A DNA stretch of 64,000 nt from the NCBI GenBank assembly GCA_040752335.1, contig JBFMEV010000008.1, positions 3,272-67,271 on the forward strand, given 5' to 3'. Source of the DNA: Chloroflexota bacterium. GTDB taxonomy: Bacteria > Chloroflexota > Limnocylindria > Limnocylindrales > CSP1-4. Both the position numbers and the translations under genes were made by a program. The notes beneath the pieces were generated by a model. That model did not search any database, was not told the origin of the DNA, and saw only the letters and a list, made by a program, of their open reading frames with translations. The first letter of the stretch is position 1, and every line of letters starts with the position of its first letter. Shown piece by piece: positions 15,473 to 34,860 of this stretch.

Positions 15473-16078
15473 ATGACCACCACCACCGCCGGATCGGCCG
15501 GGGCGTCCCCGGGCCTGCTGATCGACACTCGCTGGCGCACTCGCGACATCCTCGTGACCGCCGTCATCGGCGTCGCCTTCGGCGTCGTCTTCTGGGCCTG
15601 GGGAGCCGCGGCCTGGCCGGCGCTCGCTCCGCTCAACGGCGCCGTCCCCGTGTTCCAGGACCTCTTCTACGCCGTCTGGCTCGTGCCGGCCGTGCTCGCT
15701 CCGTTGATCGTCCGCAAGCCGGGCGCGGCCCTCTTCGCCGAGATGGTGGCTGCCGGCCTGTCCGCGCTCCTCGGCAGCCAGTGGGGGGTCGACACGCTCC
15801 TGTCCGGGTTCGTCCAGGGAGCGGCCGCCGAGCTCGTCTTCGCCTTCACCCTCTACCGCGCCTGGACGCTGCCGGTCCTCGCCGTGGCCGCTGTCGCCAG
15901 CGCCGCCGCGGCCTGGATTCACGACTGGGTCTTCTACTACCCGGAGGTCGCGATCGAGATCCAGGTCGCGCGCGGCATCGCGATGGCGATCTCGGCGGTC
16001 GTGATCGTGGCATTCGGGTCGCAGGCGCTCGCTCGATCGCTCCGACGGGCAGGCGTCCTGGAAGGGTTCCCCGACTGA
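15473..16078 (+). CDS. ykoE: ECF transporter S (substrate-capture) component, YkoE-like (HMP/thiamine precursor)
   Basis: About 6-TM small membrane protein. GGAGGA lies 8 nt upstream of the ATG. It is followed by a duplicated ATPase and a T component, and preceded by the TPP riboswitch. Confidence 0.8.
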   Translation: MTTTTAGSAGASPGLLIDTRWRTRDILVTAVIGVAFGVVFWAWGAAAWPALAPLNGAVPVFQDLFYAVWLVPAVLAPLIVRKPGAALFAEMVAAGLSALLGSQWGVDTLLSGFVQGAAAELVFAFTLYRAWTLPVLAVAAVASAAAAWIHDWVFYYPEVAIEIQVARGIAMAISAVVIVAFGSQALARSLRRAGVLEGFPD

Positions 16079-17622
16079 CCGCCGCGCCCGGGGCGGGGGG
16101 ACCGCTTCCGCTCGCCGCCGACGGCGTCCGCTTCCGCTACGCCGGGGCGGATCGGCCTGCCCTCGACGGGATCGACCTCCGGCTCGACGCGGGCGGCGTC
16201 CTCCTCGTCGTGGGGCCGTCCGGGTCCGGCAAGAGCACGCTGGGGAAGGCGGTCGCGGGCCTCGTCCCGCGGGACGTCCCCGGGGAGTGGGGGGGCTCGC
16301 TGCGCGTCGGTGGCCTGGAGGTCGCGTCGGCGGAGCCGGCCGAGGTCGCCGCTCGCGTCGGGATCCTGTTCCAGGATCCGGCCAGCCAGCTGGTCATGGA
16401 CCGAGCGGCCGACGACGTCGCGTTCGGCCTCGAGAACCGGGCCTGGCCGCTCGAGGCGATGCGGAGGCGGGTGCCGGAAGCGCTCGGGGCCGTGGGCCTC
16501 GGCGGCTTCGGGCGGCGGCGCGGGACGCGCCTCTCGGGTGGCGAGCAGCAGCGACTCGCGCTGGCCGGCGTGGAGGCTCCCTCGCCCGCCGTCCTGGTCC
16601 TCGACGAGCCGACGGCGAACCTGGATCCGGCGGGCGCCGACGCGGTGTTCAGGCGCATCGCCGAGCTCCGGTCCGCGCGGCGGACGACGATCGTCCTCGT
16701 CGAGCATCGAGCCGACCTCGCCTGGCCCCTCGCCGACATGATCCTCGCCCTCGACGAACGGGGCTCGCCGATCGCTCTCGAGCCCCCAGCTCGAATGGCC
16801 AGCCGGCACGGCAGGCGCCTCGCCGGTGAGGGGATCTGGCTGCCGGCCGACTGGACGGCGCCCGCCCGTCCCGCGGACGGCGCCCCGCCGGGCAGCGCCG
16901 CCGACGGCCGGCCAATCGTCGAGGTCCATCACGCCCGGTTCAGCTACGCATGCGGCGTCGAGCCCGCCGTCCGCGACGTCGAGCTCGAGATCGGGGCCGG
17001 CGAGCGGGTGGCGATCGTCGGACCGAATGGCAGCGGCAAGTCGACGCTCCTTCGGCTCGTCGGAGGCCTCCTCCGTCCCTCGGCGGGATCCATCGAGGTC
17101 GGCGGCGCGGATCCCCGGCGCCTGCCGGCGCCGCTCCTCGCCCGGCTCGTCGGGCTGGTCTTCCAGGACCCCGAGCTGGGGTTCCTCGGGGAGACCGTGG
17201 CCGGTGAGATCGGCCTCGGTCTCGACCAGGCTCGGGCCTCGGCGGCGGGCGAGCTCCTCGAGCGGCTGGGCATGCCGCTCGAGGCCTTCGGCGAGCGGAG
17301 TCCGTACCGCCTCTCGGGCGGCGAGCAGCGTCGCCTGTCCGTCGCCACCGCCCTGGCGAGGCGGCCGCGGGTCCTCCTCCTCGACGAGCCCACGTTCGGC
17401 CAGGACCGGCGCGGCTGGGAGGCCCTCGCCTCGATCCTCGATGAGCTCGTGGAGGAGGGGACCGCGGTCCTGGCCGCGACCCACGACGCGCGGTTCGCCG
17501 CGCGCGTCGCGGGCCGCCGCATCCAGATGGCCGACGGCTGGGTCGTCGCCGACGACGGCCCAGGAGCCGACGACGACCCCATCACCGGCACGCACGAGCT
17601 CCTCCCCGCGGCAGGCGCCTGA
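16075..17622 (+). CDS. ykoD: ECF transporter duplicated ATPase (two ABC domains), YkoD-like; start uncertain
   Basis: Two Walker A motifs (GPSGSGKST, GPNGSGKST). Two signature motifs (LSGGEQQRLALA, LSGGEQRRLSVA). No ATG/GTG/TTG lies in frame just upstream of the first domain. The CTG at 16075 overlaps the ykoE stop (CTGA). Confidence 0.85.
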   Translation: MTAAPGAGGPLPLAADGVRFRYAGADRPALDGIDLRLDAGGVLLVVGPSGSGKSTLGKAVAGLVPRDVPGEWGGSLRVGGLEVASAEPAEVAARVGILFQDPASQLVMDRAADDVAFGLENRAWPLEAMRRRVPEALGAVGLGGFGRRRGTRLSGGEQQRLALAGVEAPSPAVLVLDEPTANLDPAGADAVFRRIAELRSARRTTIVLVEHRADLAWPLADMILALDERGSPIALEPPARMASRHGRRLAGEGIWLPADWTAPARPADGAPPGSAADGRPIVEVHHARFSYACGVEPAVRDVELEIGAGERVAIVGPNGSGKSTLLRLVGGLLRPSAGSIEVGGADPRRLPAPLLARLVGLVFQDPELGFLGETVAGEIGLGLDQARASAAGELLERLGMPLEAFGERSPYRLSGGEQRRLSVATALARRPRVLLLDEPTFGQDRRGWEALASILDELVEEGTAVLAATHDARFAARVAGRRIQMADGWVVADDGPGADDDPITGTHELLPAAGA

Positions 17623-18374
17623 TGCTGACCCCGATCGAGCTCAGCGATGCCCAGGCCTCGAGCCTCCTCGGCCGGACCAGCCCGCTCGTGAAGCTGGCCC
17701 TGGCAATCGCCTGGCTCGTCGGGCTGGCCGTCATCGGCGAGCCCGGCCCGCCGCTCCTCCTGGCCGCCCTGGCCGTCGCCGCCGGGCTTTCGATCGGGCG
17801 GGTGCCGCCGGGCAACCTCGCCCGCGGCCTGGCCCCGCTCGTCCTCGCGGCGACCTCGATCGCCCTCGCCAACCTCCTCTGGGCGGGCGCCAACACGGAT
17901 CCAGCCGCCACCGAGCTCGCGAGGCTGGGCCCCTTCCGGATCACCCGCGAGGCGGCCGAGGCCGCCGGGGCCCTGGCATCACGTGTCCTCGCGATCGTGG
18001 CGGTCGGCGCCGTCTTCGCCCAGACGACCGACCCGACCCGGCTGGTCGATGCGCTCGTCCAGCAGGCTCGCGTCCCGGAGCGGTTCGCCTACGGCGCGCT
18101 CGCCGCGTACCAGGCCGTCCCGGGCCTGGCCGAGGACCTCGTCACGCTCCGCCAGGCGCGCCGGATCCGGGGGCTCCGGGGCTGGCACCCGAGGCTGCTC
18201 CTGGGCCTGCTGGTCCGGGCCATCCGCCATGCCGACCAGCTCGCCCTGGCGATGGATGCCCGGGCCTTCGGGAGCGGTCCCCGGACGACATTCCGGCCCA
18301 TCCGCTGGGGCTGGCCCGATCTCGTGGTCGGGATCGGTGGCCTGGCGGTTCTCGCCCTTGCCCTCCGGATCTGA
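17622..18374 (+). CDS. ykoC: ECF transporter T (transmembrane energy-coupling) component, CbiQ family
   Basis: Polytopic membrane protein with the conserved …LRQARRIRG…ALAMDARAF… (Ala-Arg-Gly-type) coupling helices. ATGA overlap with ykoD. Confidence 0.82.
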   Translation: MLTPIELSDAQASSLLGRTSPLVKLALAIAWLVGLAVIGEPGPPLLLAALAVAAGLSIGRVPPGNLARGLAPLVLAATSIALANLLWAGANTDPAATELARLGPFRITREAAEAAGALASRVLAIVAVGAVFAQTTDPTRLVDALVQQARVPERFAYGALAAYQAVPGLAEDLVTLRQARRIRGLRGWHPRLLLGLLVRAIRHADQLALAMDARAFGSGPRTTFRPIRWGWPDLVVGIGGLAVLALALRI

Positions 18375-18505
18375 TCCCGGAAGAACCACCGGGACCGCGG
18401 GCTGGAACGACCTACCGCGGGGGGCGCACAATGTCCGGACATCCCTCGATCGTTCGTGCGCGCCCGATCGGCGGGCCCGCGTCAGTGCCCAGATGGAGGT
18501 TCCCG

Positions 18506-19951
18506 ATGACCGAGGTCATGGACAAGGTCCAGGCGTACCAGCAGTTCATCGGCGGGGAGTGGGTGGACAGCGCCAGCGGGGGGACCCTGGACGTCCTCAA
18601 CCCGGCCACCGACGAGGTGGTTGCGCGGGTCCCGGCGAGCGACACCGAGGATGTCGATCGGGCGGTCCGGGCGGCCGAGCGGGCCTTCGAGACCTGGCAG
18701 CACACGACGCCCCAGGACCGCAGCCTCCTCCTCCTCAAGCTCGCCGATGCCCTCGACTCCCGGGCCGACGAGCTCGGCCGCCTCGAGAGCCTCCACACCG
18801 GCAAGCCCATCCACATCGCCATCGACGAGATGGCCGTCTGCTCCGATCTGTTCCGCTTCTTCGCCGGCGCGGCCCGGGTCATGGAGGGCAAGGCCGCCAA
18901 CGAGTACATGGCCGGGCACACCTCGCTCATCAGGCGCGAGCCGGTCGGCGTCGTCGCCTCCATCGCGCCCTGGAACTACCCGCTCTACATGGCCGCCTGG
19001 AAGCTGGGCCCGGCCCTCGCGACCGGCAACACCGTCGTCCTGAAGCCCTCGGCGCGGACACCTCTGACGGCCCTCGCCTTCGCCTCGACCCTCGGCGAGA
19101 TCTTCCCGGCCGGCGTCGTCAACGTCCTGTCCGGCACGGGGGCCGCGATCGGCGACGCGCTCGTGGGCCACCCCGGCGTCCGGATGATCTCGGTCACCGG
19201 CGACACCGAGACTGGCAAGCGGATCGCCCGCATCGCCGCCGACCGGGTCAAGCGCCTCCACCTGGAGCTCGGGGGCAAGGCCCCGGTCATCGTCTTCGAC
19301 GACGCCGACATCGATGCCGCCGCCGAGACGATCAAGTTCGCCGGCTATTGGAACAGCGGCCAGGACTGCACGGCCGCCTGCCGGGTCATCGCCGGCCCCA
19401 AGGTCTACGACAGGTTCGTCTCGGCCCTGACCGACCAGGTCCGCTCGATCAAGTGGGGCAACCCGACCGAGGCCGACGACCTGGACATGGGCTCGCTCAT
19501 CGCCCAGGCCCAGGCAGACAAGGTCGAGGGCATGGTGAACCGCGCCCGCGAGGGGGCCGAGGTCCTGGTCGGCGGCGTCCGGCCGAGCGGCCCCGGCGCC
19601 TACTACGAGCCGACGGTCATCGCCGGCCCGGACCAGCGCTCCGAGATCATCCAGGACGAGGTCTTCGGGCCGGTCGTCACCGTCCAGCGGTTCTCGGACG
19701 AGGAGCAGGCCATTGCCTGGGCCAACGACGTCCGGTTCGGGCTGGCGGCGTCGGTCTTCACCAACGACATCGGACGGGCGATGCGGGTCGCCAAGGCGAT
19801 CCAGTTCGGGACGGTCTGGATCAACGAGCACTTCACGCTCGTCTCCGAGATGCCCCACGGCGGCTTCAAGGAGTCGGGCTACGGCAAGGACGGCTCGATG
19901 TACGCCCTCGAGGACTACACGATCGTCAAGCACGTGATGCTGAAGATCTGA
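18506..19951 (+). CDS. NAD(P)-dependent aldehyde dehydrogenase (aminobutyraldehyde/betaine-aldehyde-dehydrogenase-like)
   Basis: ELGGKAP and the catalytic Cys in GQDCTAACR. FIGGEWV at the N-terminus. GGAGG lies 5 nt upstream of the ATG at 18506. The 1041-aa track ORF is a spurious upstream extension. Confidence 0.9.
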   Translation: MTEVMDKVQAYQQFIGGEWVDSASGGTLDVLNPATDEVVARVPASDTEDVDRAVRAAERAFETWQHTTPQDRSLLLLKLADALDSRADELGRLESLHTGKPIHIAIDEMAVCSDLFRFFAGAARVMEGKAANEYMAGHTSLIRREPVGVVASIAPWNYPLYMAAWKLGPALATGNTVVLKPSARTPLTALAFASTLGEIFPAGVVNVLSGTGAAIGDALVGHPGVRMISVTGDTETGKRIARIAADRVKRLHLELGGKAPVIVFDDADIDAAAETIKFAGYWNSGQDCTAACRVIAGPKVYDRFVSALTDQVRSIKWGNPTEADDLDMGSLIAQAQADKVEGMVNRAREGAEVLVGGVRPSGPGAYYEPTVIAGPDQRSEIIQDEVFGPVVTVQRFSDEEQAIAWANDVRFGLAASVFTNDIGRAMRVAKAIQFGTVWINEHFTLVSEMPHGGFKESGYGKDGSMYALEDYTIVKHVMLKI

Positions 19952-19987
19952 TCAGGCGCTCTCGAGACCACGCGAGCCGAGGCTGAC

Positions 19988-20515
19988 CTGAGGCGCTCTG
20001 CCCTCGTCGTCCCGTTCCGGCTGCCGCCGCGCCTGGCCGCGATCCGCCGGCGCGAGGTCGAGGTCGCCCGGCTCGGCGTGCCGCCGCACGTGACGATCCT
20101 GTCGCCGTTCGTGGAGGTCGAGGAGATCGATGGCGCCGTCGTCGCTCGGGTTGCCGAGGTCGTGGCGGGCGTGCCGGCCTTCGACGTCTCGTTCGGCGCC
20201 GTGCGGCGCTGGCCAGCGTCCGAGCTGGGGCCCGGTGTCGTGTGGCTCGAGCCGACGCCGGCCGAACCCTTCGTCGCCCTGACCCGCGCGAGCTGGGCGG
20301 CGTTTCCGGGTTACCCGCCGTACGGTCGCGAGGACGACGACCTCGAGACCCACCTGACGATCGCCATCGACGAACCCGCTCGCTTCGACGCCGTCGAGGC
20401 CGAAGCCTCCCGGCTCGTGCCCTTCCGGCGCCGGGCGACGTCCGTGGCCCTCCTCGTGGAGGGCCCGCAAGGTCGCTGGCGAACCCGGCGACGCTTCCCG
20501 CTCGCGGTCGGCTGA
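19988..20515 (+). CDS. 2H phosphoesterase / 2'-5' RNA ligase-family protein (start uncertain)
   Basis: Two H-x-T motifs are present (PHVTIL and THLTIA). The N-terminal strand ALVVPF lies upstream of the track ORF start at 20078. The only in-frame candidate there is the CTG at 19988. Confidence 0.65.
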   Translation: MRRSALVVPFRLPPRLAAIRRREVEVARLGVPPHVTILSPFVEVEEIDGAVVARVAEVVAGVPAFDVSFGAVRRWPASELGPGVVWLEPTPAEPFVALTRASWAAFPGYPPYGREDDDLETHLTIAIDEPARFDAVEAEASRLVPFRRRATSVALLVEGPQGRWRTRRRFPLAVG

Positions 20516-20859: not shown

Positions 20860-22842
20860 TCAGGCGATCCCGACGATGCGGGCGATGACGCCGCCCGCGG
20901 CGAGGGCGAGCGCCAGCGAACCGAGGGTGATCGTCAGGGCCGGGCGGCGGCCCAGCTCGGCGATGAGGGCGGCGAGCGTCGCGGCGCAGGGGATCGAGAT
21001 CGAGGTCACGATCGCGAAGACGAAGACCTGGCCGGCGGTCATGAATGTGCCGAGGTCGCCCGCCCCGAGGCCGTACTCGACGACGGCGAGGGCAATCAAC
21101 AGCTGCAGCGCCAGCTCCTTGCGCAGGAAGCCGAAGGCGAACGCGACGCCGGCGATCGGCGGCAGGCCCAGCCAGCCCTCGGTCAGCGGGCCGAGGGCCG
21201 TCGAGATCGGGGCCCAGGCGCCGGTCTCCCAGGCCAGCCCGACGACGAACGAGCCGATGAGCATGATCGGTGCGGCGGTGAGGACGAAGCCCCGGAAGCG
21301 GGCCCAGGCCTTCTGGGCGACGTGGCCTGCGACGGGCACCCGGAGGCGGGCCATCTCCAGGACCAGGCTCGGCTGACGGCCCGGGACGAGCTTGTTGGCA
21401 CCGACGCCGGCCGCGATCGCCACCGCCGCCGTGACGACGAAGGCCGCCAGGGCCACGCCTGGACCGGCCAGCGGCACGAGCGCCGCGATGACGACGGCGC
21501 TCCGGGCGGAGCAGGGCGTGAGGGTGATGAGGAACGAGGCGAGGATCCGCTCGCGGCGGGTCCGCAGGATCCGGGTCCCGTACAGGGCCGGGACGTTGCA
21601 GCCGGCGGCGGCCAGCAGGGGCACGGCGGCCCGGCCGGGCAGCCCCAACGCGTTGAAGACGCGGTCGAGGAGGACGGCCGCGCTGGTCAGGTAGCCCGAA
21701 TCCTCGAGGGCGGCGAGGAGGACATAGAAGGTCAGGATGTACGGGATCCCGACGGAGATCAGGGCCAGGAGACCACCGTCCACGGCCCACAGGATCGAGC
21801 TCGCCAGGCTCGGGATGGGGATGATCGCGGTGACGACCGCGGTCAGGGCCGGCGAGACAGCGGCGGCCCAGGCATTGCCGAGGATCGCCGCCAGCCAGCC
21901 GCCGACGACGACCATCAGCCCGAACGTGGCGAGGGTCACGGCCACGAACGCCGGGATGCCGGGGACCGGCTCGGTGGCCAGGCGCTCGAGCCGGTCGCGG
22001 AGCGGCGGCCGCACAGCCCGCAGGCGCTCGACCTGGCGGCTCCACGACCCGGCGAGATCGGCCCGCGCGGCGTCGAGCTCGGTGCCGAGGACGATCGTCG
22101 CCGCGCCCCGCGGGTTGGCAACGCCGGCCTCGATGAGGCGGCCGAAGCCCGTCGCGTCGAGGACCGCGGCACCGACCGAGCGGAGCCCGGGAACTCGGGC
22201 CGAGAGCTCGGCCGCCTCGGCCCCGACCCGGGCCTCCAGCGACGGCGGGTAGATCGGTGCCGGCAGGGTCGACGACGGCGCGCTGAGGCCCAGCCGGACG
22301 TCCCGCCGTCGCGTCGCCAGGCGGATCGCGTCGGCCAGGGCCGCCTGGACCCCCTCGCCGGAGCGTCCGTTGGTCACGTGGACCGGCGCCAGGAGGAGCT
22401 GGGAGAGGCGGCCCGTGTCGAGCTCGATGCCGTGACGGGCGGCCTCGTCGGACAGGTTGGCGGCGACGACGATCGGCAGACCCAGGTCGCGACAGGCGAG
22501 AGCCAGGGGCAGGTGCCGGGCCAGGTCGCCGGCGTCGACCAGGACGAGCAGCGCGTCCGGCCGCGCCGTCTCAAGGTGCTGCCAGAAGGGCCCGCTGCCG
22601 GCCGGGCGGTCCAGGAGCGAGCGCGTGCCCGGCAGGTCGACGAGGAGCGCCTCCCGGCCGTCGGCGCAGACCCGGCGGCGTTCGAGGAAGACGGTCGTTC
22701 CGGGGGCGTTGGCGGTCTCGGCGAAGCGCCCGCTGCCGCGGGCAAGGAAGGTCGACTTGCCGACGTTCGGGCGGCCGACGAGGGCCACGACCGGCAGGTC
22801 GCCGGTCCGATCCGGGGCGGCCGCTCCGTGGTGGTGCATCAT
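20860..22842 (-). CDS. feoB: Ferrous iron transporter FeoB
   Basis: The N-terminal G domain has GRPNVGKST, DLPG and NLSD. The C-terminal part is a polytopic gate domain. The ATGATG start at 22842 overlaps the stop of the upstream cgoX-feoA ORF. Confidence 0.9.
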   Translation of the reverse strand: MMHHHGAAAPDRTGDLPVVALVGRPNVGKSTFLARGSGRFAETANAPGTTVFLERRRVCADGREALLVDLPGTRSLLDRPAGSGPFWQHLETARPDALLVLVDAGDLARHLPLALACRDLGLPIVVAANLSDEAARHGIELDTGRLSQLLLAPVHVTNGRSGEGVQAALADAIRLATRRRDVRLGLSAPSSTLPAPIYPPSLEARVGAEAAELSARVPGLRSVGAAVLDATGFGRLIEAGVANPRGAATIVLGTELDAARADLAGSWSRQVERLRAVRPPLRDRLERLATEPVPGIPAFVAVTLATFGLMVVVGGWLAAILGNAWAAAVSPALTAVVTAIIPIPSLASSILWAVDGGLLALISVGIPYILTFYVLLAALEDSGYLTSAAVLLDRVFNALGLPGRAAVPLLAAAGCNVPALYGTRILRTRRERILASFLITLTPCSARSAVVIAALVPLAGPGVALAAFVVTAAVAIAAGVGANKLVPGRQPSLVLEMARLRVPVAGHVAQKAWARFRGFVLTAAPIMLIGSFVVGLAWETGAWAPISTALGPLTEGWLGLPPIAGVAFAFGFLRKELALQLLIALAVVEYGLGAGDLGTFMTAGQVFVFAIVTSISIPCAATLAALIAELGRRPALTITLGSLALALAAGGVIARIVGIA

Positions 22843-24557
22843 CGGCCGGCTGCGGCTGCCGGCTCGGGGGCGGGCTCCACGGCGACAGTTGAGGCGACGG
22901 ATCGCGCAACGGCGACCCTGGCCCGCCCCACCCCGACGACGAGCGGCCCGCCGAGGGGCGCCCGCGAGGCGACGGCGACGATCGTGCCCGGAACGACGCC
23001 CTCGAGGGCCAGCTCGGCCGCGTGGTCGGCGGCGACCGAGACGACCCGGGCTCCGGCGCCGATCGGGAGGGCGTCCAGGCTCGTGGAGCCGGCGCCAACC
23101 GCGGCGGTGGGCGCGGCTGCGTCGGCGGCCCCGGCGGGCGCTTCCGCCGGCGCCCCGCCGGACAGCAGCAGGGCGATCGAATCGGCAGCCGCCCGGCCCT
23201 GGGCGATGCAATCGGGCAGGCCGACCCCGCGATAGGCACCGCCGGCGATCCGGAGCGCCGGGTAGGGTGCCAGGGCGGCCTCGGCGGCGGCCACCCGCTC
23301 CAGGTGGCCAACGGTGTAGTGGGGCATCGCAGCGGGATAGCGGGCGACGCGGGTGAGCAGCGGCTCGCCGCGGATGCCGACCGTCCCGGCGACGTCGCGG
23401 TGGGCGGCCGCCACGAGCCCGGGATCGTCGAGGTCGTGGGCCCCGGTCCGCCGATCCCCGATGAAGGCCCGGACGAGGAGGGTCCCCTCGGGCGCCCGGC
23501 CGGCCCACTTCCGGGAGCTGAACGTGGCGGCGCTGATCGTCAGCGGCTCGTCATCGGCGACGAGGAACCCGTGGCCGGCGAGGTCGTCGGGTAGCTGGTC
23601 GTCGCCGTAGGCCAGGTTCACCACGGCCGTCGCACCATGCGGGATCGACCGGATCTGGCCGGCCGCATCGGGCGCGCCTCTCTCGAGGAGATCGGCCGTC
23701 ACCCGGGCCGGGGTGGCCAGGATCGTGGCCTCGGGGGCCAGCCGTTCGCCGCCGCAGAAGCGAACCCGGACGCGCGAGCCGTCGAACTCGAGGTCCTCGA
23801 GGAGACACTGGGTCCGAATCCCGACGTGGGGCATCCCGTGGAGGGCCTCGGCGAGCGCATCGACGAGCTGCTGGGTGCCGCCGGCGAGGGTCACGAACGG
23901 GGACGGCGACGGCCCGTCATGTCGACCGTCCGCCGCGGCCTCCTTCCGCGCCCGGGCCTCGGCGAGGGCGGCGAGAAGGAGCGATCGATGGCGGCGCTCC
24001 GATTCCCGGAGCTGGGGGACGACCGCATCGAGGCTCAGCTCGTCGATCGGAGTGCCATAGACCCCGCCGATGAGCGGGCCAGCCAGCCGATCGACGAGGG
24101 CCGACCCCAGGCGCCGCCGGAGGAACGGCCCGACGGCCACGTCGCCGTCGCTCCCGTCGCGCGGCAGGAGGAGGTCCAGGCCCATCCGCGCCTTGGCCAG
24201 CGGCGAGAAGAGGTCGCTCGTCAGGAACGGCCGGAGCTTCGTGGGGAGGACGAGGCCCATGCCGTCGGGGAAGCGGCGGAAGCGGCCGCCGGCTCGGATG
24301 AAGACGATCCGCGGCTCTTGCGGCCGGACGACCGCGTCGCCGAGGCCCAGCTCGCGGATGAGGGCCAGGCCCGCCGGTCGGTAGCTCACGAACGAATCCG
24401 GGCCGTGCTCGATGACGAAGCCGTCGACCTTTTCGGTCCGGATCTTGCCGCCCAGGCGGCGCGAGCCCTCGACGAGGAGGGTCGGGATGCCGGCCTTGCC
24501 CAGCGCATAGGCGCTCATCAGGCCGGTGATGCCGCCGCCGACGACGAGGACTGTCAT
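22839..24557 (-). CDS. cgoX: Coproporphyrinogen/protoporphyrinogen oxidase (HemY/CgoX) with a C-terminal FeoA domain fused in frame
   Basis: 572 codons with no internal stop. The N-terminal 465 aa are a HemY-type FAD oxidase ([13 protein letters not shown]…MPHYTVGH…GGAYRGVGLPDCI). An Ala/Pro linker follows. The last part is FeoA-like (…LPIGAGARVVSV…GVVPGTIVAV…PLVVGVGRARVAVARSVASTV). Confidence 0.85.
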   Translation of the reverse strand: MTVLVVGGGITGLMSAYALGKAGIPTLLVEGSRRLGGKIRTEKVDGFVIEHGPDSFVSYRPAGLALIRELGLGDAVVRPQEPRIVFIRAGGRFRRFPDGMGLVLPTKLRPFLTSDLFSPLAKARMGLDLLLPRDGSDGDVAVGPFLRRRLGSALVDRLAGPLIGGVYGTPIDELSLDAVVPQLRESERRHRSLLLAALAEARARKEAAADGRHDGPSPSPFVTLAGGTQQLVDALAEALHGMPHVGIRTQCLLEDLEFDGSRVRVRFCGGERLAPEATILATPARVTADLLERGAPDAAGQIRSIPHGATAVVNLAYGDDQLPDDLAGHGFLVADDEPLTISAATFSSRKWAGRAPEGTLLVRAFIGDRRTGAHDLDDPGLVAAAHRDVAGTVGIRGEPLLTRVARYPAAMPHYTVGHLERVAAAEAALAPYPALRIAGGAYRGVGLPDCIAQGRAAADSIALLLSGGAPAEAPAGAADAAAPTAAVGAGSTSLDALPIGAGARVVSVAADHAAELALEGVVPGTIVAVASRAPLGGPLVVGVGRARVAVARSVASTVAVEPAPEPAAAAGR

Positions 24558-34179: not shown

Positions 34180-34860
34180 ATGAACCAGTACGTCCAGGCG
34201 ATGGTCCTCGGCCTCGACCCGACGTGGCGCCGGCTCGACGGCGCCACCCGGGCCGCGGGCGCCGCCGCGTTCGCCGAGGTCATCGAGGGCCGCAACGACG
34301 TCGTCACCGCGACGTACGAGATGATCGGGCGGCGGGCCGCAGCGGACATCCTGGTCTGGCGCCTCGCGCCGAGCGTCGACGTCCTCGACGACGAAGCGGC
34401 GCGCCTCCTCCGGACCGGCGTCGGGAGGTGGCTGTCGGTCCGCGAGTCGTTCCTCGGGCGGATCAGTGAATCGCAGTACGTCGCCCGTCCCACGAGCCAG
34501 GAGCAGTCGCTCTTCGCCGGTGACCGCGCCCGGTACCTCATCGTCTATCCGTTCACGAAATCGGTCGAGTGGTACCTGCTCCCGCGCGAGGTCCGCCAGG
34601 GCTCGATGAACGAGCACATGCGCGTCGGGCGGGCGTATCCGCAGGTGCGCCAGCTGCTGGCCTACTCGTTCGGCCTCGATGACCATGACTTCCTGGTGGC
34701 CTACGAGACCGATGACCTGCCCGCGTTCTCCGAGCTCGTCCGGGAGCTCCGCGCCACTGACGCTCGCCGCTCGACCGTCCGTGACACGCCGATCCTGCTC
34801 GGGGTTCACCGGCCGATGTCGGAGATCCTGGAGCTCCTTGGCGCCGCCGATCCGGGCTGA
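34180..34860 (+). CDS. chdC: Coproheme decarboxylase (HemQ/ChdC, chlorite-dismutase family)
   Basis: …YLIVYPFTKSVEWYLL…MNEHMRVGRAYPQVRQLLAYSFGLDDHDFLVAYETDDL…FSELVRELR… matches the HemQ family pattern. Confidence 0.85.
   Translation: MNQYVQAMVLGLDPTWRRLDGATRAAGAAAFAEVIEGRNDVVTATYEMIGRRAAADILVWRLAPSVDVLDDEAARLLRTGVGRWLSVRESFLGRISESQYVARPTSQEQSLFAGDRARYLIVYPFTKSVEWYLLPREVRQGSMNEHMRVGRAYPQVRQLLAYSFGLDDHDFLVAYETDDLPAFSELVRELRATDARRSTVRDTPILLGVHRPMSEILELLGAADPG

Follow-up and report, generated by a model that had tools for sequence, protein, structure and literature searches.

Why should an enzyme of heme biosynthesis end in a domain of the Feo iron-import system? The question is raised by a single gene, hemY-feoA, in a stretch of 64,000 nucleotides from a Chloroflexota bacterium (contig JBFMEV010000008.1, positions 3,272 to 67,271; the whole of this stretch is referred to below as the window). 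The gene lies at the end of a run of heme-biosynthesis genes and directly ahead of feoB, which encodes the Fe(II) transporter FeoB. In our view the probable answer is that its product is a genuine, anciently fused protein, in which the oxidase CgoX is joined by a tether to an FeoA that serves the adjacent FeoB, and that a Feo importer has in this way been embedded in a coproporphyrin-dependent heme operon.

An earlier reading of the window, made from the letters alone (the sequence-only reading), had described an in-frame fusion of a 465-residue HemY-type oxidase, a linker of 28 residues and an FeoA-like tail, and this description is borne out. The gene is one open reading frame (ORF) of 572 amino acids on the minus strand (24557..22839), which translates from an ATG start to a TGA stop with no internal stop, and Pfam models for both domains match its product. 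Exact translation gives residues 466–493 as SGGAPAEAPAGAADAAAPTAAVGAGSTS, an Ala/Pro/Gly linker of 28 residues, followed by LDALPIGAGARVVSV and the remainder of the tail, and the domain limits agree with this division. The profile of GC content at third codon positions holds a single coding phase from 24557 down to 22901. The same reading was right that a separate feoA would lack a canonical start: there is no in-frame ATG, GTG or TTG between residues 430 and 520, just CTG and ATC codons, and no Shine–Dalgarno-like sequence was found ahead of the CTG at residue 494 in the linker region. A six-frame scan of the 64 kb window with hidden Markov models found no second FeoA domain. FeoA is present here as the C-terminal domain of a 572-residue protein, with no start of its own, and not as the stand-alone cytoplasmic protein of ~8 kDa. 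The overlap of the stop codon of the fusion with the start of feoB had also been read correctly (TGA at 22841–22839, ATG at 22842–22840).

The assignment of the tail to FeoA stands as well. The Pfam FeoA model (PF04023) matches residues 493–562 of the full protein (E = 6e-12, 45.9 bits) and the 110-residue tail by itself at 49.1 bits, the gathering cut-off being 23. A sequence search of the Protein Data Bank (PDB) returned the FeoA entries 3e19, 3mhx and 2k5i, and all of the significant matches are transport-type FeoA. The AlphaFold2 (AF2) model of the tail alone has a predicted local distance difference test score (pLDDT) of 95.5 and consists of five strands and two helices in an SH3-like barrel. 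When this model was compared with the PDB using Foldseek, the top ten matches were all FeoA, with template-modelling (TM) scores of 0.78–0.86 and root-mean-square deviations of 1.5–2.7 Å; FeoA of Bacteroides fragilis, from a natural FeoAB fusion (7r7b), matches at a TM score of 0.86. The SH3 domains of DtxR, IdeR and MntR occupy ranks 11–14, below the FeoA proteins. In the AF2 model of the full fusion, built on 47 fused homologues (mean pLDDT 84), the HemY domain is confidently predicted and residues 491–565 form a confident small β-barrel, with residues 469–488 between them disordered (pLDDT 31–41).

Conservation follows the same division. Across the 47 fused homologues the mean pairwise identity is 67% for the HemY domain (457–478 residues), 52% for the FeoA domain (71–72 residues, with no insertions or deletions) and 17% for the linker (13–41 residues). 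Some 18 residues of the FeoA domain are invariant or nearly so among the fused homologues, and the conserved residues of the domain include no Cys/His cluster fit for metal binding. For the closest pair of DNA sequences, the window and locus L012, the nonsynonymous divergence (dN) is 0.09 in HemY, 0.22 in FeoA and 0.53 in the linker; the synonymous divergence (dS) is saturated or undefined at ~90% GC in third codon positions (GC3), and only this closest pair is informative, in a qualitative sense.

The larger part of the protein is matched by Pfam Amino_oxidase (PF01593; residues 10–461, E = 4.8e-47, 161.7 bits, cut-off 19.8), by NAD_binding_8 and by the NCBIfam model TIGR00562 (proto_IX_ox), the last at 230.3 bits against a cut-off of 97.85. 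It carries the Rossmann motif VVGGGITGL, which binds flavin adenine dinucleotide (FAD), at residues 4–12. The best PDB fold matches to the whole model are CgoX of Bacillus subtilis (9a78_B), the protoporphyrinogen oxidase of Myxococcus xanthus and HemY of B. subtilis (3i6d), with TM scores of 0.89–0.91 when normalised to the target; with the B. subtilis proteins it shares both the fold and the FAD-binding N-terminus. By the fold search this domain could be either CgoX or PgoX. HemY, CpfC and ChdC together are the signature of the coproporphyrin-dependent pathway, and the reading of HemY as CgoX, already proposed from the sequence alone, is supported because cpfC belongs to the same operon and a gene of the ChdC/HemQ family lies nearby. 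Neither hemF nor hemN was found among the operon genes and those other ORFs of the window that were scanned, a part of the total. The HemY of the fusion is likely to be CgoX, with coproporphyrinogen III as its substrate. The gene order hemE–hemH–...–hemY, accompanied by ChdC, that is seen in CgoX systems of this pathway is matched by the window locus. However, the CgoX and PgoX proteins among the PDB matches stop after the oxidase domain (419–470 residues), whereas the window protein adds a C-terminal extension of 107 residues that bears FeoA.

To what extent the fusion is shared by other organisms can be seen from its homologues, taken as the 120 best-scoring protein clusters at 90% identity. 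PF01593 and PF04023 occur together in 51 of these clusters, which are 56–100% identical to the query. The fused proteins are 531–598 residues long, apart from P0024 (480 residues), which is truncated at the N-terminus. They are drawn from JGI, ENA, NCBI and Logan assemblies, and their named sources are Candidatus Limnocylindrales, Limnocylindria or Chloroflexota. Because the fusion recurs to this extent in data of such varied origin, and the coding frame in the window is continuous, a local sequencing error is excluded. Public annotation describes the fused proteins just as 'protoporphyrinogen oxidase', which is why their FeoA part has been overlooked.

In a neighbour-joining tree of the HemY domain the fused forms occur in all parts of the tree, intermixed with unfused ones, which is consistent with an old fusion that has been lost many times. 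These homologues show the fusion to be an ancient one that a clade of Chloroflexota has conserved. A set of 80 distant hemY loci (32–58% identity), obtained by scanning metagenome contigs with the fused alignment, with patterns in the HemY motifs, served as an outgroup, and among the matches listed none has FeoA or FeoB adjoining hemY; the HemY–FeoA–feoB arrangement is therefore specific to the clade. A scan of genome contigs with the single protein as query yielded just L004 and L005, which are unfused or short. The second of these (DATIUS010000286.1; P0026), with a HemY 73% identical, is on a 9.8-kb contig of a metagenome-assembled genome labelled Candidatus Sulfomarinibacteraceae (Acidobacteriota), and this contig is probably mis-binned. 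At L006 hemY, feoA and feoB are apparently split (the unfused protein is P0037), with the FeoA frame open back into hemY; a single insertion or deletion, real or erroneous, could explain this state, which makes the split uncertain. The hemY clusters that carry feoA thus number 52, namely the 51 fused ones and P0037, and include at most one possible fission.

What the domain does is indicated, indirectly, by its association with feoB. In all of the intact cases examined (the window, L003, L012, L092, L093 and L094) feoB lies directly downstream of the FeoA domain, and an ATGA or TGATG overlap with feoB is also found in L092, L093, L094 and L006. The closest unfused relative, P0017 (84% identity; L001/L002), is encoded in the same hem operon, which there has neither the FeoA domain nor feoB, and L001/L002 keep the downstream genes of the window for a 2'-5' RNA ligase and an energy-coupling factor (ECF) transporter. 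L010 likewise has neither the FeoA domain nor feoB. Two loci show the module in decay. At L009 (8420–9011) the FeoA domain has an in-frame deletion of 21 residues and FeoB is reduced to a fragment of ~130 residues; this locus has many fragmented genes, and part of the decay there may be assembly error. At L011 (8437–8619) a frameshift interrupts the FeoA sequence, and purK has taken the place of feoB. Since the domain stays intact only where feoB is present, and is missing or degenerate elsewhere, we conclude that it serves FeoB and is dispensable for HemY; it is probably a working FeoA, and the oxidase itself does not depend on it.

FeoA also exists free of HemY. A search with the FeoA profile through 1.8 billion representatives mostly matched proteins of 80–130 residues, and a search for homologues of the tail alone returned nine short proteins. 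Two of the best of these nine, P0121 and P0122, were considered as free FeoA and rejected, both being fragments of frameshifted hemY-feoA genes. P0135, from the profile search, is a free FeoA of 91 residues that belongs to the same subfamily and is encoded away from heme genes, in a feoA-feoB operon of the usual kind (L095), the FeoB of which is 61% identical to that of the window. As a separate observation, three giant proteins, P0179 (2789 residues), P0243 (2987 residues) and P0259 (2533 residues), each contain 10–17 stretches that match the FeoA-domain profile.

The FeoB of the window is matched by FeoB_N (97 bits), two Gate domains (91 bits) and FeoB_C (30.5 bits), all over their cut-offs; TIGR00437 matches it over its full length at 290.5 bits, just under the cut-off of 315.65. 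It has the G1 motif GRPNVGKST and is 61–74% identical both to the FeoBs encoded after other fused genes and to that of the stand-alone feoAB operon. Its ATG lies in a different frame from the FeoA domain and a TGA separates the two, which means that they do not form a single FeoAB polypeptide. The gene hemY-feoA is the ninth of ten tightly packed genes on the minus strand, most junctions of which are overlaps of four nucleotides. Since feoB follows the fusion immediately and is, from the overlap, translationally coupled to it, the arrangement shows the predicted Feo Fe(II) importer to be built into the coproporphyrin-pathway heme operon as its last cistron. It follows that iron import and heme synthesis are co-transcribed and that FeoA and CgoX are necessarily made 1:1. 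The ferrochelatase gene cpfC lies two genes upstream of the fusion, as the sequence-only reading had it, with a radical S-adenosylmethionine (radical SAM) gene in between.

Such a protein most likely originated when hemY lost its stop codon beside an adjacent feoA. Translation of feoB is coupled to that of hemY-feoA, and the only FeoA encoded in the window is the one that CgoX carries at its C-terminus, on a flexible tether. In natural FeoA–FeoB fusions, FeoA binds the G-domain of FeoB (NFeoB), stabilises its GTP-bound state and slows GTP hydrolysis (PMC8980893). By analogy with these characterised systems the FeoA domain described here would engage the FeoB G-domain, and this engagement may hold CgoX at the membrane, on the cytoplasmic face of FeoB and next to the point at which Fe(II) enters. 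In that case coproporphyrin III would be produced near the incoming Fe(II), for use by CpfC. Channelling of Fe(II) to heme metalation in a metabolon is plausible. A specific form of it, in which CgoX–FeoA nucleates a membrane complex of FeoB, CgoX and CpfC and Fe(II) from FeoB is passed directly to the coproporphyrin ferrochelatase, is a speculative proposal that we consider unlikely as it stands; a complex of this kind might also couple the GTP-gated opening of FeoB to porphyrin production.

Several points weigh against the view that the tether between CgoX and FeoA has a purpose of this kind. For this system FeoA–FeoB binding, membrane recruitment and contact with CpfC are inferred. CgoX itself uses no iron, and a design for channelling would more obviously tether CpfC. 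The partner of FeoA is merely the neighbouring gene, the last of the hem genes, which is what loss of a stop codon between adjacent genes would give. The linker is free in both length and sequence, no reliance can be placed on the dN/dS values, given a saturated dS and a GC3 of ~90%, and the module is dispensable, since relatives as close as L001 (84% identity) manage without the whole of it. FeoA may, in addition, be released from the fusion by proteolysis. Nevertheless, the persistence of the fusion over a deep clade with at most one possible fission argues for some benefit.

These points lead to the first of three other explanations, namely that neighbouring genes have fused with no selective consequence, FeoA tolerating an N-terminal extension and acting as free FeoA would, and the tether having no metabolic effect beyond co-expression. 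We regard this as possible, if on the improbable side. It accounts for the adjacency of the partner gene and for a disordered linker that is free to vary, it sits well with loss of the module as a unit in many lineages with no replacement at the locus, and it can point to the apparent split at L006 and to the free FeoA of the same subfamily in ordinary feoAB operons (L095). It accounts less readily for a fused state that has lasted across a deep clade in which HemY identity falls to 56%, and the one apparent fission among the 52 feoA-carrying clusters is indistinguishable from a single frameshift error. Moreover, any binding of FeoA to FeoB would of physical necessity bring CgoX and FeoB together.

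The second explanation gives the domain a regulatory role. The Pfam FeoA family takes in the C-terminal SH3-like domains of DtxR-family regulators, structures of this type are the next-best folds after the FeoA proteins, and the linker is rich in Ala and Pro; the domain could accordingly be a switch in the manner of DtxR, IdeR or MntR, intramolecular or dependent on the state of FeoB, that tunes CgoX to the iron supply. It might, for example, bind its own Pro-rich linker and prevent a phototoxic build-up of coproporphyrin III when Fe(II) is scarce. We think this quite unlikely. Transport-type FeoA, and not DtxR, accounts for the ten best fold matches and for every significant match to PDB sequences, the conserved residues contain no Cys/His cluster for metal, and the sequence of the linker is not conserved. 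In addition, the domain decays once feoB is lost, which argues against a role independent of FeoB. Searches of Pfam and NCBIfam found no helix-turn-helix (HTH) or metal-binding dimerisation domain in the fusion, and a marginal match to MntR (E = 0.043) falls on the SH3 part.

The third explanation, an artefact or pseudo-fusion owing to a missed stop or frameshift, or to FeoA being made from a noncanonical internal start, could appeal to the long spurious ORFs that high-GC DNA yields, to the frameshift-ridden related contigs L007, L008 and L009 and to the CTG at residue 494, but it is largely refuted and in our estimate highly improbable, given an in-frame architecture that recurs across 51 clusters, independent of one another and drawn from four data sources, a continuous coding-frame signal, a linker with neither canonical start nor Shine–Dalgarno motif, and 'free' FeoAs (P0121 and P0122) that themselves come from frameshifted hemY-feoA genes.

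If the protein is a CgoX with a tethered FeoA that serves FeoB, as we prefer, three known arrangements invite comparison. Natural FeoA–FeoB fusions occur in B. fragilis and Porphyromonas gingivalis, with FeoA on a flexible linker of ~35 residues (Sestok et al. 2022, PMC8980893). Like the window protein they have an FeoA of the same fold tethered by a flexible linker, and the fusion implies action on the FeoB G-domain; there, however, FeoA is at the N-terminus of FeoB itself, whereas here it is carried C-terminally by an enzyme of heme biosynthesis, and FeoB, a separate product, is joined to it at the level of the gene by an ATGA overlap. The canonical feoA-feoB operon, represented by L095 and by free FeoA proteins of ~75–95 residues, has an FeoA of the same subfamily, an FeoB 61% identical to that of the window and the same overlap of stop and start. 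It differs in that feoA there begins at a start codon of its own, in an operon with no linkage to heme genes; the module of the window closes a hem operon at its 3' end, and its FeoA lacks a start codon. In DtxR, IdeR and MntR an SH3 domain of the FeoA family is likewise joined by a linker to the C-terminus of a larger protein, and the folds are similar (TM ~0.8). The window protein, in contrast, is without an HTH or dimerisation domain, and its FeoA domain co-varies with feoB and not with a regulator function.

A more distant comparison is with mitochondria, in which the iron importer mitoferrin-1, in a complex with ABCB10 and ferrochelatase, is physically linked to the terminal enzymes of heme synthesis. 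The analogy is one of function: the proteins are unrelated and the mitochondrial association is noncovalent and made through ferrochelatase, whereas an interaction of the bacterial fusion is a prediction. The heme metabolon has been reviewed (PMC13564367).

The positions of the features discussed above, together with the remainder of the operon, are collected in Table 1.

Table 1. Features of the hemY-feoA locus, with positions in the 64,000-nucleotide window
Feature	Position	Strand	Evidence or remarks
ChdC/HemQ-family coproheme decarboxylase, divergent from hem operon	34180-34860	+	Pfam Chlor_dismutase E 8.6e-51
HTH regulator, 258 aa	33942-33166	-	N-terminal BldC/excisionase/MerR-like HTH
hemA	33169-31988	-	
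Fused hemC-hemD	31985-30165	-	
hemB	30168-29110	-	
hemL	29113-27809	-	
hemE	27812-26724	-	
cpfC/hemH ferrochelatase	26727-25768	-	Pfam Ferrochelatase E 1.6e-79; TIGR00109 219 bits (cut-off 124.6)
Radical SAM/SPASM protein, TIGR04053 family	25771-24572	-	457 bits (cut-off 395)
HemY/CgoX oxidase domain of hemY-feoA, residues 1-465	23163..24557	-	Pfam, NCBIfam, AF2 and PDB fold matches
Flexible Ala/Gly/Pro-rich linker, residues 466-490	23088..23162	-	Low pLDDT, poor conservation
FeoA SH3-like domain, residues 491-565 (Pfam match 493-562)	22863..23087	-	PF04023, PDB, AF2/Foldseek
Variable C-terminal tail and TGA	22839..22862	-	Sequence reading; stop overlaps feoB ATG (ATGA, 22842-22839)
feoB, Fe(II) transporter, 660 aa	20860..22842	-	FeoB_N, two Gate, FeoB_C

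The best NCBIfam match of the ChdC-family gene is HemQ_actino, at 123 bits and under the equivalog cut-off of 235. The radical SAM protein that separates CpfC from HemY has as its next best NCBIfam match the heme b synthase AhbD (292 bits), and its gene holds the same position between cpfC and hemY in L001, L003, L006, L010, L092 and L093. No description of the function of TIGR04053 was found in the literature. Enzymes of the AhbD type occur in some organisms that use the coproporphyrin-dependent pathway (PMC13564367), and the TIGR04053 protein is a candidate O2-independent coproheme decarboxylase. The presence of ChdC-family and AhbD-like enzymes at one locus may provide both aerobic and O2-independent last steps of heme synthesis beside the O2-dependent CgoX. 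In the window protein HPGG repeats (e.g. GHPGGHPGGHPG) run N-terminal to the radical SAM core and outside the match of the family model, which begins at residue 47. They are conserved in all of the TIGR04053 relatives examined (L001, 4824–5990; L003, 4748–5989; L006, 271–1494; L010, 5815–6984; L092, 4794–5996; L093, 3761–4987) and could bind metal or heme.

A second fusion in the operon places hemC (hydroxymethylbilane synthase) and hemD (uroporphyrinogen-III synthase) in one ORF, and hemC-hemD fusions of 585–614 residues are called likewise in L001, L003, L011 and L092. The operon opens with the HTH gene, which shares four nucleotides with hemA and the product of which is a candidate for regulating the heme/feo genes; in L092 and L093, too, hemA is preceded by an HTH gene of similar type. 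No sigma-70-like promoter or credible terminator was found inside the operon, a scan that is uninformative for a Chloroflexota genome. Converging on feoB from the other side are plus-strand genes (15554–20515) for an ABC_cobalt S-component, a double ABC ATPase and CbiQ, which are of ECF type, an aldehyde dehydrogenase and the 2'-5' RNA ligase. L001 keeps the RNA ligase, CbiQ, ABC ATPase and ABC_cobalt genes and is without the aldehyde dehydrogenase; in L093 and L094 the aldehyde dehydrogenase and CbiQ are present. The feoA-feoB module comes and goes between hemY and this ECF/RNA ligase neighbourhood.

No published description of a HemY–FeoA fusion, or of FeoA on any heme-biosynthesis enzyme, was found in the literature; one bioinformatic survey set aside 'other non-Feo-related' FeoA fusions and gave no description of them. 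The parts all belong to known families (HemY/CgoX, FeoA and FeoB), and the FeoA fusions on record join it to FeoB (Bacteroides, Porphyromonas) or, in the case of the FeoA-like SH3 domain, to regulators of the DtxR family. A Feo system in which FeoA is tethered to CgoX is apparently undescribed.

The finding touches on two open questions, the role of FeoA for FeoB and the route by which Fe(II) reaches bacterial ferrochelatase without free-iron toxicity or a build-up of porphyrin. A conserved fusion of FeoA with CgoX in an operon that ends in feoB is evidence of the 'Rosetta-stone' kind that, in this lineage, the import of Fe(II) is functionally tied to heme metalation. The protein also offers a tractable, soluble construct of ~58 kDa that bears FeoA and with which FeoA–FeoB binding and possible channelling can be approached. 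Were the fusion a neutral one between neighbours, it would still show that FeoA tolerates a large N-terminal cargo and that a heme operon can have a dedicated iron importer. If instead the metabolon interpretation is true, the system would be a bacterial counterpart of the mitoferrin–ferrochelatase heme metabolon and would provide a handle on both the function of FeoA and the supply of iron to ferrochelatase in bacteria.

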